Of a DNA stretch of 64,000 nt, positions 7,658-51,259 are shown one piece after another. The position numbers and the translations under genes are program-made. The notes under the pieces were generated by a model. It ran no database searches. It was not told where the DNA came from and saw only the letters and a program-made list of their open reading frames with translations. Origin of the DNA: Pseudodesulfovibrio sp. (GTDB lineage: Bacteria > Desulfobacterota > Desulfovibrionia > Desulfovibrionales > Desulfovibrionaceae); assembly GCA_016342345.1 (NCBI GenBank), contig JAEINO010000013.1, positions 4,592-68,591 of the forward strand, given 5' to 3'. How positions within the stretch are numbered: the first letter of the stretch is position 1; each line of letters begins with the position of its first letter.

Positions 7658-7818
7658 TTAGGGAAACGCTGATTAATTCAATCTTAAGGAAGTGCTGTAG
7701 AATTGTTCGCTGGCAAGGCGCGCAAAAAAAATCAAGGCTGACGCGTGCTTCCTGCACGCTAGGGTTTGATTTTTTTGCAGCAACGAAGCCAGAGGACAAT
7801 TATGCAGTGCTTCCTTAG
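7658..7818. mobile_element. MITE family A, copy 1 (TTAG direct repeat at both ends)
   Basis: TTAG-GGAAACGCTGATTAATT ... AATTATGCAGTGCTTCC-TTAG; close match by eye to copies at 22989, 42508 and 43465; no ORF. Confidence 0.8.
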
Positions 7819-9028: not shown

Positions 9029-9277
9029 ACAGGTTGTTGATAAAGGCCCGATTGCGGCGTTGCTGCAAAAAGTTCAAATCCTTGCGTACAAGGAGTACGC
9101 GGCGGCCTTGAGCTTTTTTTGCGTCTAGCACTCGAACCTTTCTCAACAACCTGTCAGAAGTTGAGGAAGGCCCGATTGCGGCGTTGCTGCAAAAAGTTCA
9201 AATCCTTGCGTACAAGGAGTACGCGGCGGCCTTGAGCTTTTTTTGCGTCTAGCACTCGAACTTTTCTCAACAAGCTG
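9029..9277. repeat. Family B: two head-to-tail ~125 bp MITE-like units
   Basis: Unit 1 9029-9154 has inverted ends ACAGGTTGTTGA(T/G)AAAGG; unit 2 9155-9277 has an essentially identical interior; period 124 bp; core shared with family A. Confidence 0.85.
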
Positions 9278-9314
9278 CCAGATGATTTTCTTTGTTGGAA
9301 TTGGAAAATGGTGC

Positions 9315-11378: not shown

Positions 11379-12256
11379 TGTCAGAACCATTTTTACGTCT
11401 CGGTGTTCCTAAAGGTTCCTTGCAGGATGCAACCCTCAAGCTGTTTGACAAGGCAGGCTGGAAGATCAAGCTGCATGATCGCAATTATTTTCCGGATATC
11501 GATGATGACCGGATCAAGTGCTCCTTGGCTCGAGCCCAGGAAATGTCCATGTATGTCGAGAATGGCACCTTTGATGTCGGCCTGACGGGCATGGACTGGA
11601 TCAAGGAAAACAAGTCCGATGTGGTCGTGGTCGATGACCTGATCTATTCCAAGGTCAGTAATCGCAAGGCCCGTTGGGTGCTTTGCGTCAAGGGCGACTC
11701 CCCTTACACCTGCCCCGAGGACCTGGAAGGCAAAACCATTTCCACCGAGCTGGTGGGGTTCACCAAGGAATATTTCGCTACCCGTGGAATCAACGTGGAA
11801 GTTTCCTTTTCCTGGGGAACCACCGAGGCCAAGGTTGTCGAGGATTTGTGCGATGCCATTGTCGAGATAACGGAGACCGGCACGACCATCAAGGCCAACG
11901 GGTTGAGGATTATTGCCGAGTTGATGCAGACAAATACCCAGTTGATTGCCAACAGGGAAGCATGGAAAGATCCGAAAAAGCGCAAGCTCATTGAGGATAT
12001 CAACCTGCTCATGCAGGGTGCGTTGCGTGCTGACAAAATGGTCGGGTTGAAAATGAATCTGCCCAAGGACAAACTGGCCGAGCTGAATGGCTCGTTGCCG
12101 AGTTTGAATTCTCCCACCGTGGCTGAATTGCAGGACCCGAATTGGTTGTCTGTCGAGGTCATGGTCGAAGAGAAGGTTGTTCGTGAGTTGATTCCCCGTC
12201 TCAGGGAATTCGGAGCGGAAGGGATAATTGAGTATCCGTTGAATAAAGTTATTTAG
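11378..12256 (+). CDS. hisG: ATP phosphoribosyltransferase (long form)
   Basis: LGVPKGSL, DAIVEITETGTTIKANGL, C-terminal ACT-like domain (GAEGIIEYP). Confidence 0.95.
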   Translation: MSEPFLRLGVPKGSLQDATLKLFDKAGWKIKLHDRNYFPDIDDDRIKCSLARAQEMSMYVENGTFDVGLTGMDWIKENKSDVVVVDDLIYSKVSNRKARWVLCVKGDSPYTCPEDLEGKTISTELVGFTKEYFATRGINVEVSFSWGTTEAKVVEDLCDAIVEITETGTTIKANGLRIIAELMQTNTQLIANREAWKDPKKRKLIEDINLLMQGALRADKMVGLKMNLPKDKLAELNGSLPSLNSPTVAELQDPNWLSVEVMVEEKVVRELIPRLREFGAEGIIEYPLNKVI

Positions 12257-12280
12257 TTTCGGCTGGAAGTGAAGATATGC

Positions 12281-12318
12281 AAGTCGGGAGAACCAGATGG
12301 TTCTCCCGACTTTTTTTG
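12281..12318 (+). terminator. Intrinsic terminator after hisG
   Basis: AAGTCGGGAGAACC-AGAT-GGTTCTCCCGACTT plus T tract. Confidence 0.9.
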
Positions 12319-12343
12319 TGGGAATGGAATCGCCTTTGGCGAT

Positions 12344-13710
12344 GATGAAGAATGAAGATGAAAGATAAGATGCCTAAAGGCAGCCCTCCCGGCGGGGTCC
12401 GTTTTTTTGTTGGCCCAAAAAAAGGGACGAAAAAAAGGGCCTTTTAGTATCTTGGCCGCTGCCTTCCATGGCTGAGAATCTGATCAAAGCGGGTCGGCTC
12501 CATGCCATGAAAGGTCTGGGCTGTACCTTCCCGTACAGTTGCTTTTCAACAATGCTCTTCTGATCCCGGTCATAAAGCCGCCTCTTCCGCGTTGTCAGCC
12601 TCTAGGCCTTTGGAGGCTTGACGCTGGGGCGCGTGAATTGGTGTTGATATTTTGAAATCCAAAAGGCCTGCAAAAACAAGCGTTTCCAATGCCTTCATAT
12701 CTATCCTAATCACACCATATTTAGTCTTTCTTACAACGACGACCAATGAGAGCAGGGGCTTAGAGCCGGTTGACACGCGTAAGTGTAGCCCGGAAAGCGT
12801 CCGGGTCCCGGATATCTTGGAGGGCAGCGGAGCGTGTTAGCGGCTCTTAGCCATCGCGGAAGGATCACAGCGCAAAAAAAGCGACTTTTGCTTACTTTTG
12901 GTCGCTTTGGCCCAAAAGTAAGTCGTGCCGGAGGTACGAAACTCTCTGTTTATTCTTTATGGCAGCCATGGGGCTGCATCCCATTCTGCTTTTATCTTAT
13001 TGTTTCGATGAAGAATGAAGATGAAAAAAAAGATGCCTAAAGGCAGCCCTCCCGGCGGGGTCCGTTTTTTTGTTGGCCCAAAAAAAGGGACGAAAAAAAG
13101 GGCCTTTTAGTAGCTTGACCGCTGCCTTCCATGGCTGAGAATCTGATCAAAGCGGGTCGGCTCCATGCCATGAAAGGTCTAGGCTGTACCTTCCCGTACC
13201 GTTGCCCTTCAACAATGCCCTTCTGATCCCGGCCACAAAGCCGCCTCTTCCGTTTTGTCAGCTTCTAGGCCTTTGGAGGCTTGACGCTGGGGCGCGTGAA
13301 TTGGTGTTGATATTTTGAAATCCAAAAGGCCAGCAAAAACAAGCGTTTCCAATGCCTTCATATCTATCCTAATCACACCATATTTAGTCTTTCTTACAAC
13401 GACGACCAATGAGAGCAGGGGCTTAGAGCCGGTTGACACGCGTAAGTGTAGCCCGGAAAGCGTCCGGGTCCCGGATATCTTGGAGGGCAGCGGAGCGTGT
13501 TAGCGGCTCTTAGCCATCGCGGAAGGATCACAGCGCAAAAAAAGCGACTTTTGCTTACTTTTGGTCGCTTTGGCCCAAAAGTAAGTCGTGCCGGAGGTAC
13601 GAAACTCTCTGTTTATTCTTTATGGCAGCCATGGGGCTGCATCCCATTCTGCTTTTATCTTATTGTTTCGATGAAGAATGAAGATGAAAAAAAAGATGCC
13701 TAAAGGCAGC
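12344..13710. repeat. Family C locus 1: two tandem 663-bp structured non-coding units
   Basis: AGATGCCTAAAGGCAGC recurs at 12368, 13031 and 13694 (period exactly 663). Units differ at about 13 positions, all in the first ~300 bp. Confidence 0.95.
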
Positions 13711-13746
13711 ACTCGGGGCAGGGTTCATTTTTTCATTGAACTCGCG

Positions 13747-14475
13747 TCACCCTACAGTCAACCCTAGGGCTGCTTCATCCACGTACCAGAGTGTTTCCTC
13801 AGCTTCCAATCGGGCGGCTGGATAGCGATCCGGGGCGGTGGGGTCGTTCATGATCTCGTGAATAAGGGATTGTTTGTCTTTGCCTGCTGCGAGGAAAAGG
13901 GCGGTCCTGGCGTTGTTCAGGACTGGAAAGGTCATGGTGATTCGGTCGATTCTTGGGATGGCTGGCGGATTGATGACCGGGACGACCCAGTCCGTGGATT
14001 CAAGAGAGTCGGTGTTCGGGAAGAGGGAGGCTGTGTGTCCATCTGTCCCCATGCCTTGCAGGGCGAAATCGAAGCGGGGTGTTCCCTTGTCACCAAAGGC
14101 ATTGACGAGATTGCGGCGTGTGTCTTCGGCTGCCCTGTCTGCGCCGAGCTCTCCTCTGATCCGGAATATGTTGGCTTCCGGGATGGGCATGTGGCTGAGC
14201 AGGGCGTCATGGGCGAGTTTGTAGTTGCTTTGGTCGTCGTCGGGCGGAACCGCTCTGTCGTCACCCCAGAATATGAGGGTTCGGTCCCACGGCACGGCGC
14301 GCCAGTATGGTTCGCATGCCAGGATCTCAAAGAACCGCTTTGGTGTGCTGCCACCGGACAGGGCAACGGTGAATCGTGCTCGATCATTCAGAGCCTGATG
14401 TGAGCATGCGATGAAAAGTTGTGCCGCGCTCTGACTCATGTCCTCGGCGTTTGCGAAGACGTGAAAATCCGCCAT
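13747..14475 (-). CDS. pgl: 6-phosphogluconolactonase
   Basis: ALSGGSTPK, FWGDDRAVPPDDDQSNY, GMGTDGHTASLFP, RITMTFPVLN; start ATG 14475. Confidence 0.92.
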   Translation of the reverse strand: MADFHVFANAEDMSQSAAQLFIACSHQALNDRARFTVALSGGSTPKRFFEILACEPYWRAVPWDRTLIFWGDDRAVPPDDDQSNYKLAHDALLSHMPIPEANIFRIRGELGADRAAEDTRRNLVNAFGDKGTPRFDFALQGMGTDGHTASLFPNTDSLESTDWVVPVINPPAIPRIDRITMTFPVLNNARTALFLAAGKDKQSLIHEIMNDPTAPDRYPAARLEAEETLWYVDEAALGLTVG

Positions 14476-14503
14476 GGTGTTCCCTCTAGGCAAATGATGA
14501 TGT

Positions 14504-22215: not shown

Positions 22216-22992
22216 ATGAAGTTGGCGTTTGCGGGAAAGGGCGGCGTTGGAAAAACCTCGTTAACTGCATGGGTGGCTGATTGGCTGGCCCGGAACGGCA
22301 GGAATGTCTGGCTGATTGATGCGGATACGGCCCTTTCTTTGGGGCAGGCCTCCGGGTTGCAACTTGAGGCCTTGCCGGAACCGCTGGTTCGTCGCGGGGA
22401 CCTGATCCGTGAGCGCATCCATGCCAGTGGTTTTTTGAATCTGAACCCTGACGTAGGCGATTTGCCGGAGACCCTGGCTGTGGATGTTCCAATGGTCGGT
22501 GCGGCCGTGGATGGAGTCACGCCGGGGCGCAAGCGGCTCATCGTCATGGGTGCTGTGACCAATGCTGGCGGCGGGTGTGCCTGCGATGCCAACGCGCTGC
22601 TCAAAGCACTTCTGGCGCATATTGTCATGGATCGTGACGAATGGGTGCTGGTGGACTTGGAGGCCGGGGTCGAACATCTGGGGCGTGGCACTGCGACCCA
22701 TGTGGACGGGCTGGTGGTGGTTTCGGAGCCGAGCATGCGAAGCTTGCAGACCGGGGCCGAGGTTGGGCGCATGGCAACGGACCTGGGGCTGAGCAATCAG
22801 GTGTTGGTCGTCAATCGTTTCATGGGCGGAGAACTGCCCAGAATCGACGGTCTGCCCGAGTGGACCATAACCGTGCCGTCCATGCCGGGGCTGATCGAGC
22901 GTCAGATGATGGACGCATCCGTGCTTGGGCTGCCTGAGGCTGACACGCTGGATGCAATGGTTGAAAAGTTGCTTGGCAGGCTGGGGCTCTAG
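22216..22992 (+). CDS. cooC: CODH nickel-insertion ATPase CooC
   Basis: GKGGVGKT Walker A, GGGCAC metal motif, DLEAGVEHLGRG. Confidence 0.93.
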   Translation: MKLAFAGKGGVGKTSLTAWVADWLARNGRNVWLIDADTALSLGQASGLQLEALPEPLVRRGDLIRERIHASGFLNLNPDVGDLPETLAVDVPMVGAAVDGVTPGRKRLIVMGAVTNAGGGCACDANALLKALLAHIVMDRDEWVLVDLEAGVEHLGRGTATHVDGLVVVSEPSMRSLQTGAEVGRMATDLGLSNQVLVVNRFMGGELPRIDGLPEWTITVPSMPGLIERQMMDASVLGLPEADTLDAMVEKLLGRLGL

Positions 22993-23148
22993 GGAAGCTT
23001 TGCATAATTGTCCGCTGGCTTCGTTGCTTTAAAAACTTCAAATCCTAGCGTACAGGAAGTACGCGTCGGCCTTGATGTTTTCTTGCGCCTTGCCAGCGAA
23101 TAATTCTACAGCACTTCCTGAAAATTGAATTAATCAGTACTTCCCTAG
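22989..23148. mobile_element. MITE family A, copy 2 (reverse orientation; CTAG overlaps the cooC stop)
   Basis: CTAG-GGAAGCTTTGCATAATT ... AATTAATCAGTACTTCC-CTAG; most diverged copy. Confidence 0.8.
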
Positions 23149-42507: not shown

Positions 42508-42667
42508 CTAGGGAAGTACTGATTAATTCAATCTTCAGGAAGTGCTGTAGAATTGTTCGCTGGCAAGGCGCGCAAAAAAGTCAAGACTGACGCGTGCTTC
42601 CTGCACGCTAGGGTTTGATTTTTTTACAGCAACGAAGCCAGCGGACAATTATGCAGTGCTTCCCTAG
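42508..42667. mobile_element. MITE family A, copy 3 (CTAG overlaps the coaX stop)
   Basis: CTAG-GGAAGTACTGATTAATT ... AATTATGCAGTGCTTCC-CTAG. Confidence 0.85.
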
Positions 42668-43464: not shown

Positions 43465-43625
43465 CTAGGGAAGCACTGCATAATTGCCCTCTGGCTTCGT
43501 TGCTGCAAAAAAAATCAAACCCTAGCGTGCAGGAAGCACGCGTCAGCCTTGATTTTTTTGCGTGCCTTGCCAGCGAACAATTCTACAGCACTTCCTGAAG
43601 ATTGAATTAATCAGCGTTTCCCTAG
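43465..43625. mobile_element. MITE family A, copy 4 (reverse orientation, upstream of coaX)
   Basis: CTAG-GGAAGCACTGCATAATT ... AATTAATCAGCGTTTCC-CTAG; reverse complement differs from copy 1 by about 3 substitutions plus homopolymer lengths. Confidence 0.85.
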
Positions 43626-50171: not shown

Positions 50172-51259
50172 TGATGAAGATTGAAGAATAAAGAAAAAAG
50201 ATAAGATGCCTAAAGGCAACCCTCCCGGTGGGGTCCGTTTTTTTGTTGGCCCAAAAAAAGGGACGAAAAAAAGGGCCTTTTAGTATCTTTGCCGCTGCCT
50301 TCCATGGCTGAGAATCTGATCAAAGCGGGTCGGCTCCATGCCATGAAAAGTCTGGGCTGCACCTTTTCGTACTGTTGCCCTTTAACAATGCCCTTCTGAT
50401 GCCGACAAGAAAGCCGCCTCTTCCACTTTGTCAGCTTCTAGGCCTTTGGAGGCTTAACGCTGGGGCGTACGAACTGGTGTTGGAGTTTTGAAATCCAAAA
50501 GGCTGGTCAAACAAGCGGTCCTAAAGCCTTCATATCTATCCCAACCACACCATATTCAGTATTTCTTACAACGACGACCAATGAGAGCAGGGGCTTAGAG
50601 CCGGTTGACACGTGAAGTGTAGGCCGGAAAGCGTTCGGGTACCGGATATCTTGAAGGGCAGTGGAGCGTGTTAGCGGCTCTTAGCCATCGCGGATGGATC
50701 ACAGCGCTAAAAAAGCGATTTTTGCTTACTTTTGGTCGCTTTGGCCCAAAAGTAAGTCGTGCCGGAGGTGCGAAACTCTATGTTTGCTCTTTATCGCAGC
50801 TGCAGGCTGCATCCCATTTGGTCTTTATCTCATATTCTGAGATGAAGAGATAAGATGCCTAAAGGCAGCCCTCCTGGCGGGGTCCGTTTTTTTGTTGGCC
50901 CAAAAAAAGGGACGAAAAAAAGGGCCTTGCATTATCTTGGCCGCTGCCTTCCATGGCTGAGAATCTGATCAAAGCGGGTCGGCTCCATCCCATGAAAAGT
51001 CTAGGCTGCGCCTTTCCGTACCGTTGCGCTTTAACAATGCCCTTCTGATCCCGACAAGAAAGCCGCCTCTTCCACTTTGTCAGCTTCTAGGCCTTTGGAG
51101 GCTTAACGCTGGAGGGAGGCGATTTGGCATCCGTGTTTTGAAATCCAAAAGGCTGGCAAAAACAAGCGGTTCCAATGCCTTCATATCTATCCCAACCACA
51201 CCAAAATTAGCATTTCTTACAACGACGACCAATGAGAGCAGGGGTTTAGAGTAGGTTGA
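50172..51259. repeat. Family C locus 2: one full 649-bp unit plus a 3'-truncated ~405-bp unit
   Basis: AGATGCCTAAAGGCA at 50204 and 50853; colinear with the 12368 unit; second copy loses similarity after GGTTGA at about 51259. Confidence 0.93.

Follow-up and report, generated by a model that had tools for sequence, protein, structure and literature searches.

Structured extragenic repeats are known from Enterobacteria and Pseudomonas as repetitive extragenic palindromes (REPs), bacterial interspersed mosaic elements (BIMEs) and REPINs, the last of which are formed by a pair of inverted REPs separated by a spacer (Nunvar 2010, PMC2817692; Bertels and Rainey 2011, PMC3116915; Di Nocera 2013, PMC3733652). 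The subject of this analysis is a tandem array of 663-bp units downstream of hisG in a 64,000-nucleotide stretch of Pseudodesulfovibrio sp. DNA (GenBank assembly GCA_016342345.1, contig JAEINO010000013.1, positions 4,592 to 68,591 of the forward strand), referred to here as the window, in which all coordinates are given. The reading that we favor, and that has about an even chance of being correct, is that the array belongs to a non-autonomous, terminator-associated mosaic repeat of the REP/BIME/MITE (miniature inverted-repeat transposable element) kind, amplified locally by recombination. To our knowledge, it is rare for a bacterial genome to maintain dozens of copies of a non-coding repeat that is hundreds of base pairs long. 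Other structured, MITE-like repeats of bacteria are Correia/NEMIS in Neisseria and BOX, RUP, and SPRITE in Streptococcus pneumoniae; REP/BIME, Correia, and BOX repeats influence supercoiling, genome plasticity, or the ends of transcripts. Class C group II introns reportedly insert immediately after intrinsic terminators and in sense orientation, a behavior that Robart, Seo and Zimmerly are said to have described in 2007.

The repeat resembles REPs and BIMEs in being extragenic, palindromic, and organized as multicopy modular mosaics, with arrays at gene 3' ends and between convergent genes, and in having a core palindrome conserved far beyond what neutral decay predicts. It differs from them in that its units measure 250 to 790 bp rather than 20 to 100 bp and have large covarying interiors, its end is a predicted pseudoknot without the GTAG/CGTC tag, and a RAYT-like gene is lacking from most element-bearing genomes. 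With Correia, BOX, RUP, and SPRITE it shares non-autonomy, an intergenic position, modularity (compare BOX A-B-C), inverted ends that fold in the transcript, and a terminator-like or terminator-associated character (compare SPRITE); however, no TA or other target-site duplication (TSD) and no matching insertion sequence (IS) family are found here, the inverted ends are composite hairpin structures of ~100 nt rather than terminal inverted repeats (TIRs) of 20 to 30 bp, and the end module is common to several phyla. The likeness to class C group II introns, of which copies of similar size without an open reading frame (ORF) exist, is one of behavior and not of membership: insertion occurs just past terminators in sense, but there is no domain V/VI and no GUGYG...AY, and the element ends, TGGGAAT and GCATCCCA, are inverted. 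IS200/IS605 palindrome-associated elements and the TnpB omega RNA have in common with the repeat subterminal hairpins, the lack of a TSD, and a non-coding structured cargo, whereas the hairpins here do not have the same orientation and there is no fixed target tetranucleotide, TnpB, or replication-strand bias.

Composition of the repeated unit

The two complete units downstream of hisG (12344-13006 and 13007-13669) are 98% identical, with 15 differing positions, and an incomplete third copy of 69 bp follows (13670-13738; 86% identity, repeat family D5), divergent past 13708. A second locus begins ~20 nt past the PaaI stop codon with a forward composite unit (50172-50828), which from 50180 to 50828 is 90% identical to the unit at hisG, and continues with a forward unit truncated at unit position ~430 (50829-51259). 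Repeat and alignment matches thus bear out both layouts given in the original prediction, namely, two full 663-bp units plus a third boundary after hisG and a full 649-bp unit plus a truncated copy at the PaaI locus. That the tandem arrangement is an assembly artifact, or merely a local duplication without wider meaning, has next to no chance of being right. The genome is a draft of 149 contigs, several of which end inside arrays, but the two units are not identical, copies occur on 14 contigs, the unit-to-unit junction (13001-13059) recurs unchanged in three independently assembled sediment metagenomes, and similar arrays are present in complete genomes of relatives. Because of the three independent assemblies and the arrays of the relatives, the tandem arrangement is taken as real.

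Alignments with related genomes indicate that the 663-bp unit is a composite of two directional non-coding elements joined tail to tail, an A element on the forward strand (12344-12629) and a B element on the reverse strand (12630-13006). Many arrays stop exactly at ACGCTGGGG, at unit position 286, which is the A end, and A-only arrays exist (contig C146, period of ~365 bp). When reverse-complemented, 12630-13006 matches, block by block, forward tandem units that follow hisG in three other species (three units of ~415 bp in G011, three of 380 bp in G001, and two of 364 bp in G020), the matching blocks being the pseudoknot, AAGAGCC...GGCTCTAAG, and CAATTG..GTCGTTGTAAG. It is from the array ends at position 286, the A-only arrays, and the forward B units of these species that the division into A and B follows. 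Units with one end only, A-only and B-only, occur as well.

In each element, the start module has the order purine-rich leader, one or more mini-hairpins, U-rich/A-rich hairpin, A-rich linker, and loop-complementary segment. The composite ends are inverted because the B element is inverted. Both subterminal hairpins of the original prediction are present (12397-12428, with 13-nt arms that are 92% complementary, and 12891-12922, with 11 of 11 positions complementary), as is the shared 11-mer TTGGCCCAAAA at 12410 and 12907, which is not general among relatives; their proposed direct orientation did not hold, since the left hairpin has its loop partner on the 3' side and the right hairpin has it on the 5' side. 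The mini-hairpins that flank the ends are also mirrored (12383-12397 with 12923-12939 and 12370-12382 with 12963-12983). Set against the TIRs of a classical MITE, the two inverted end modules have a homologous architecture (TGGGAT, mini-hairpins, and pseudoknot), with no more than a loose likeness in sequence.

Position 12344, previously taken as an end of the element, is an internal array junction, and the true left end is TGGGAAT at 12319. A terminator scan places the intrinsic terminator of hisG at 12281-12318 on the forward strand (a 14-bp stem, then T7G); it is host sequence, kept after hisG in the relatives G006 and G009, which have no element there. The element begins at the base directly after T7G with its outermost left end (12319-12343, forward strand; TGGGAATGGAAT and the mini-hairpin CGCC-TTT-GGCG), which is present in the first array unit only and is missing from internal array junctions, including the start of the second unit, which otherwise repeats the parts of the first at +663 on the same strand. 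An end of TGGGA(A)T plus mini-hairpin likewise adjoins terminator T-runs in several species, among them three loci of genome G044 (L149, L155, and L158), and at two loci of the window's own genome (C48 and C7).

The further parts of the A element, all on the forward strand, are a purine-rich leader of low complexity that varies between loci (12344-12369; GATGAAGAATGAAGATGAAAGATAAG), the P0 mini-hairpin (12370-12382; ATGCC-TAA-AGGCA), the T1 mini-hairpin, which is nearly invariant over three phyla (12383-12397; GCCCTCCCGGCGGGG), the H1 pseudoknot described below, and the A core (12442-12629), which contains long-range helices and ends at ACGCUGGGG. Homologs of P0 occur in relatives as GAGAGCC-[hairpin]-CTCC mini-modules in variable number. 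In G044 (loci L145-L160; also L146:~900-1000), the left side carries one to three or more mini-modules of ~45 to 60 nt, made of GAGAGCC-[GGGGC-TGC-GCCCC]-CTCC plus GCGCC-TGC-GGCGC triloop hairpins, and the right side carries mirror-image mini-hairpins (GCGCC-GCA-GGCGC). The B element, on the reverse strand, comprises an AT-rich 3' tail that is the most variable center of the composite (12630-12756), the core hairpin and the H2 pseudoknot described below, and mini-hairpins (12923-12983) made up of a T1' region (12923-12939), GCAGCC-AUGG-GGCUGC (12963-12978), and the right outer end ..GCATCCCA (12976-12983; reverse complement TGGGATGC). A pyrimidine-rich spacer (12984-13006, forward strand) is partly complementary to the purine-rich leader of the following unit. 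The incomplete third unit (forward strand) retains the leader, P0, and degenerate versions of T1 and H1, after which lies the convergent pgl gene (13747-14493, minus strand).

Folding of the end module and the cores

Hairpin H1 of the A element has its 5' arm at 12398-12409, its loop at 12410-12415, and its 3' arm at 12416-12427, followed by an A-rich linker (12428-12436) and a partner segment, GGGCC (12437-12441), that pairs with the loop sequence GGCCC (12412-12416) to give an H-type pseudoknot (12398-12441, forward strand). Its counterpart in the B element, H2 (12873-12922, reverse strand), interleaves the pairing of GCGAC (12881-12885) and GUCGC (12901-12905) with the arms CUUACUUUUGG/CCAAAAGUAAG (12891-12901 and 12912-12922), and copies on contigs C48, C33, and C134 have a compensatory version, GCCGC/GCGGC with UCUUUUUUGG/CCAAAAAAGA. 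An alignment of 31 distinct modules, drawn from three phyla and registered by hand, is curated and hence leans towards structure. In it, 95.9% of cells are standard pairs; column shuffles give 78.1%, with none of 500 as high as the alignment itself, and sliding the partners by one to three columns gives no more than 67%. Changes on both sides are seen in 15 of the 21 module pairs, including 9 of 12 stem pairs and 5 of 5 loop-partner pairs, and the T1 pair C6-G14 is replaced by U-A in 12 of the 31 sequences. Loop and partner occur by lineage as GGCCC/GGGCC, GGGGC/GCCCC, GGAGC/GCUCC, GCGCC/GGCGC, CGCCC/GGGCG, GGCCG/CGGCC, AAAGC/GCUUU, and AGCCG/CGGCU, the first five of which were already aligned in an uncurated MAFFT alignment. 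Judged by this covariation, the conserved end of the family is a pseudoknot whose structure appears to be under selection.

The A-tract of the linker follows that of the stem in length and in its interruption by G (r = 0.79), as would be expected of either base triples or an alternative helix. A parallel, in structure only, is offered by triple-helix pseudoknots (telomerase RNA, the SAM-II riboswitch, and the element for nuclear expression [ENE] of PAN and MALAT1): one strand of the module provides, in order, stem 1, a U-rich loop, a U-rich strand, the stem 1 partner, and an A-rich strand with U.A-U composition, and in the interrupted class, the stem G-C is matched by a C of the U-rich loop (a G of the linker on the forward strand), as in a C+.G-C triple. 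This likeness is one of predicted composition; a register test of mirror versus direct repeats did not tell a triple helix from an alternative helix.

In the A core, a long-range helix joins 12475-12488 to 12591-12603 (AGAAUCUGAUCAAA / ..GUCAGCCUCU) and encloses a second helix (12491-12498 / 12580-12588). RNAalifold, given an uncurated alignment of 19 A elements of the genus, returned a 14-bp long-range helix, AGAAKCUGAUCnnn / nnnGAUCAGCUUCU, with compensatory changes (one pair is CG in 9, AU in 8, and GC in 2 sequences, and another is UA in 16 and CG in 2), and it also recovered the second helix and the loop-partner helix. The core hairpin of the B element (12757-12852, reverse strand), which when read in reverse aligns with the forward B units of G011, G001, and G020, pairs GGCUUAGAGCCG (12757-12768) with CGGCUCUUAGCC (12841-12852); its helix GGC.AAGAGCC / GGCUCUAAG.GCC covaries at the ends, and the inner hairpin UCCGG-GUC-CCGGA covaries too. 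Two further pairings, 12456-12468 / 12818-12830 and 12584-12594 / 12852-12862, were rejected, having no covariation in the alignment of copies.

Tests of which strand would be folded as RNA are contradictory among the module, the A core, and the B core. The folding energy is -265 kcal/mol for the forward strand versus -245 kcal/mol for the reverse strand, and G.U pairs outnumber A.C mismatches by 25 to 6 in the A-core helices on the forward strand, whereas the end module has 15 A.C and 10 G.U; by alifold consensus energy, neither strand has an advantage for A, and the opposite strand has it for B. A sigma-70 promoter scan inside the unit found nothing beyond chance. The conserved TTGGCC-N17-GAGAAT was rejected as a promoter, as it corresponds to a covarying hairpin plus a helix strand. 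As for T1 and the adjoining U-run serving as the unit's own terminator, the stem has 4 to 5 bp and the U-run is the stem of H1.

The ORFs in the units have at most 76 amino acids, and none has a Pfam match. The region is considered non-coding because the ATG before the first mini-hairpin is not conserved, the frames differ between subfamilies, and the indels are not multiples of three; an array of protein-coding genes was rejected on the lack of a conserved open frame and on the short ORFs. The covariance-model search proposed in the original prediction gave nothing at the gathering score of Rfam 15 in the window and only chance-level hits at E values up to 10 in 12200-13800, with group II intron, HEARO, OLE, GOLLD, ROOL, and ribozyme models included. 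Scans for tRNA and transfer-messenger RNA and comparisons with plasmids and phages also yielded nothing. An integron attC site was rejected on reading the sequence, as the GTTGGCC motif lies in the hairpin loop rather than at the stem base, has no RYYYAAC partner, and does not occur in other subfamilies; no search for IntI was made. Nothing on this family was found in the searchable literature on MITEs or repeats of Desulfovibrio and Pseudodesulfovibrio, and, being outside Rfam 15 as well, it is apparently undescribed so far. The earlier description of a non-autonomous, non-coding multicopy element with structured ends and interior, outside Rfam 15, is supported by these results.

Distribution and insertion sites

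A blastn search of the unit against its own genome, another of the checks that had been proposed, returned 54 segments on 14 contigs. The copies are either long (~660 bp) or cut at unit positions 286, 430, 533, and 596, and arrays with a period of ~365 or ~300 bp hold only the first part of the unit. A covariance model of the A-type end module (R1) found 47 end modules in this genome and between 3 and 59 copies in 39 of 42 Pseudodesulfovibrio genomes, with none in the other three. Weaker but multicopy matches were obtained in 32 of 400 other Desulfobacterota genomes, representing 30 genera, and there was no match in 12 genomes of other Desulfovibrionaceae genera.

Five of the distant Desulfobacterota matches were inspected, and all have the hairpin, the A-rich linker, and the loop partner, with interiors of a third type. 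This third element type is ~250 nt long; its 5' pseudoknot module lacks the T1 hairpin, its core contains GCCGCCACCCCTTCGGGGCC, and its 3' end is GGCAAAAGGGGGTWAAAAAC; some copies start 8 to 10 nt past stop codons (examples of the type are L136:1515-1760 and 2140-2200, L138:1510-1765, and L139:1330-1555). An exact-pattern scan located the module in metagenome-assembled genomes (MAGs) of Nitrospirota, Thermodesulfovibrionia, and Deferribacteres, where it has unrelated interiors and an inverted copy at the far end. In G044, 16 dispersed composites of 612 to 790 bp are ~84% identical overall, and their flanks are unrelated (29% identity). A horizontally moving element would be expected to show conserved ends, variable cargo, and a patchy distribution. 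An exact match to the module also lies near the edge of a 38.8-kb predicted viral contig (L144:2081-2107; IMG/VR UViG 649633037_000004), probably a prophage region of a Pseudodesulfovibrio relative.

A co-oriented canonical terminator lies 35 to 93 nt upstream of the array start in 6 of 15 arrays of the window's own genome, versus 2.5% of random windows, with the array start being defined by blastn and lying within the leader of the element; nine terminators beside these arrays were counted by eye. Co-orientation with the upstream ORF is seen for 11 of 14 arrays. In G044, a terminator abuts the left side in 6 of the 16 copies, and an inverted terminator abuts the right side in 6 of the 16. Behind hisG, G006 and G009 have no element, G022 has a single A element, and G001, G011, and G020 have arrays of B units; because these states differ among species, the site appears to have been filled more than once, or its content has turned over. 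Members of the family occur 100 to 1,300 nt after hisG in G001 (L079), G011 (L077), G020 (L095), and G041 (L082), a genus-wide hotspot at which the distance from hisG to the next gene ranges from ~170 to more than 1,300 nt. A synteny comparison of the PaaI locus had too few orthologs.

Candidate modes of dispersal

On evolutionary time scales, the family would behave as mobile DNA, given its dispersed copies with unrelated flanks and its patchy occurrence across phyla. In the mosaic-repeat reading, a composite whose outer ends are inverted modules of the same ~100-nt kind settles directly beside the T-runs of intrinsic terminators, and its movement would require a trans-acting enzyme able to recognize the folded end module. 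Internal junctions without TGGGAAT fit an origin of the tandem copies at hisG after one insertion, by unequal recombination or slippage between repeats, rather than by repeated integration or as the rolling-circle multimers of the original prediction. Several observations count against this reading. No transposase or other partner was identified, and no TSD was found at 15 loci of the same genome or at the 16 G044 copies, in agreement with the earlier remark that a clear target duplication is missing. The left boundary is fuzzy, since the number of mini-hairpin modules ahead of it varies; selection against insertions elsewhere, instead of targeting, could account for the location beside terminators; and filled and empty sites were compared between species only. 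Furthermore, the 60-nt module of G044 is 99% identical among the 16 copies while the remainder is 62 to 90% identical, a difference that neutral decay of a selfish element does not predict. This conservation points to a function or selection at each locus or to gene conversion that homogenizes the ends. Because the module is far better conserved than the rest of the copies, it probably also acts at each locus, for example, as a transcript-end structure or a protein-binding site.

The same conservation also counts in favor of a structured RNA family, in which the copies would be host genes or 3'-end modules transcribed by read-through or from their own promoters, with dispersal being secondary; we regard this as unlikely, though a serious candidate. 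Its pseudoknots would cap RNA ends against exonucleases, possibly with a U.A-U triple helix on the strand with two U-tracts and one A-tract. Covariation in the module and both cores, the G.U excess of the A core, the advantage of 20 kcal/mol for the forward strand, the correlated A-tracts, co-orientation with upstream genes, and, in other genera, starts 8 to 10 nt after a stop codon all speak for it. Against it stand the absence of a sigma-70-like promoter in the unit, the disagreement of the strand tests, the unrelated interiors in other phyla, and the position of most copies downstream of a terminator. Metatranscriptome contigs from a strain close to G001 cover hisG at a depth of 10 to 57 and hardly cover the array behind it, which is a weak argument because these are contigs only, from another strain, with B-type units. 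The sequencing runs that hold the window are three sediment metagenomes and include no RNA run, and those of relatives are DNA or metatranscriptome contigs of other strains with almost no array coverage, which makes them uninformative to weakly negative. An extension of the RNA reading to transposable RNA genes is a long shot. Here, the end module would be a triple-helix pseudoknot (U.A-U plus one C+.G-C) that serves both to protect the RNA end and as a handle for a trans-acting enzyme, possibly a reverse transcriptase, placing copies at terminator T-tracts; if true, bacteria would have their first equivalent of the ENE-bearing transposon RNAs of plants and fungi, as well as a system resembling short interspersed elements. 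Movement through an RNA intermediate as such, with a trans-supplied reverse transcriptase recognizing the pseudoknot and integration targeting terminators as in class C group II introns, is very improbable. The directional elements with one conserved structured end and variable bodies, their co-oriented positions just after terminator T-runs, and the lack of TSDs are compatible with it, but there is neither a group II intron signature nor an Rfam match to the intron models, a poly-A-like tail or other hallmark of retro-insertion is missing, the composite has inverted ends, and no reverse transcriptase turned up beside any copy, although none was searched for.

The original prediction favored a single-stranded DNA element mobilized by an HUH/Y1 transposase, either of the IS200/IS605 palindrome-associated type or a REPIN whose RAYT reads the folded hairpins, and we consider this quite improbable. 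Folded ends that conserve structure more than sequence, the lack of both TSDs and classical short TIRs, and the presence of one RAYT-like Y1 gene and one IS200 tnpA in the genome would agree with such a mechanism. However, this tnpA (C131:15214-15636) is the only one, is frameshifted, and is flanked by GC-rich hairpins (CCCCCCAGCTTTGCTGGGGG / CCCCCGGCTTTGCCGGGGG) unrelated to the repeat, and the genome has no TnpB. The RAYT-like ORF (C91:3-833; 277 amino acids, with a C-terminal helix-turn-helix-like tail) lies at a contig edge and is followed by short repeats of the CCCTTTCT(C/T) type; its one known flank contains no end module, and a RAYT-like gene is found in 7 of 31 genomes of the genus (6 of the 30 others), compared with 39 of 42 for the element. 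The inverted end modules also speak against it. There is no fixed 5' target of 4 to 5 nt, as the 5' flanks vary (TTTTTTTG, TTTTTTCA, TGATGA, and others) and the elements have a T-run on their left flank and an A-run on their right, nor is there a consistent GTAG/CGTC tag at the hairpin foot, with CGTC confined to a single B subfamily. Along the complete chromosome of G044, the orientation switches strand at least 10 times among 18 matches, which does not suit a single-stranded DNA transposon with lagging-strand bias. The HUH proposal is thereby left without the traits that define it and is considered unsupported. Longer copies with the same ends enclosing a transposase, which had been suggested as a search, were absent from the window's own genome, the 16 G044 loci, and 27 named contigs.

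Genes of the IS110 family stand in a different relation to the repeat. In four copies (L042:7453-8000, L044:1-140, L055:1-103, and L063:1-140; MAG 'Pseudomonadota bacterium MEGAHIT-group-3.15'), an IS110-family IS with the ORF start MARIKVSSVCRFVEAFVGQRVFVGVDVHKK is inserted into the module at an identical base of its A-rich linker (...CCAAAGAA(A)TA|CCATGTCGGC...). The gene is inside the module and not bounded by module copies, and the IS seems to use the repeat as a programmed target present in multiple copies; the window's own genome has one IS110 fragment only.

With 3 to 59 loci per genome across nearly the whole of a genus of environmentally important sulfate reducers and a reach into other phyla, the family breaks draft assemblies, marks terminators, and would serve an IS110-type IS as a landing pad. 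The gap between 99% and 84% identity calls for a further function or a maintenance mechanism, and R1 enables both the annotation of such regions and a search for partner proteins by phyletic profiling. The window contains other repeats that are unrelated to the composite family, namely, a 124-bp tandem duplication and dispersed repeats of ~160 bp that share a core (families D4, D6-D8, and D11), at 9036-9282, 7659-7818, 22989-23148, 42509-42667, and 43465-43625.

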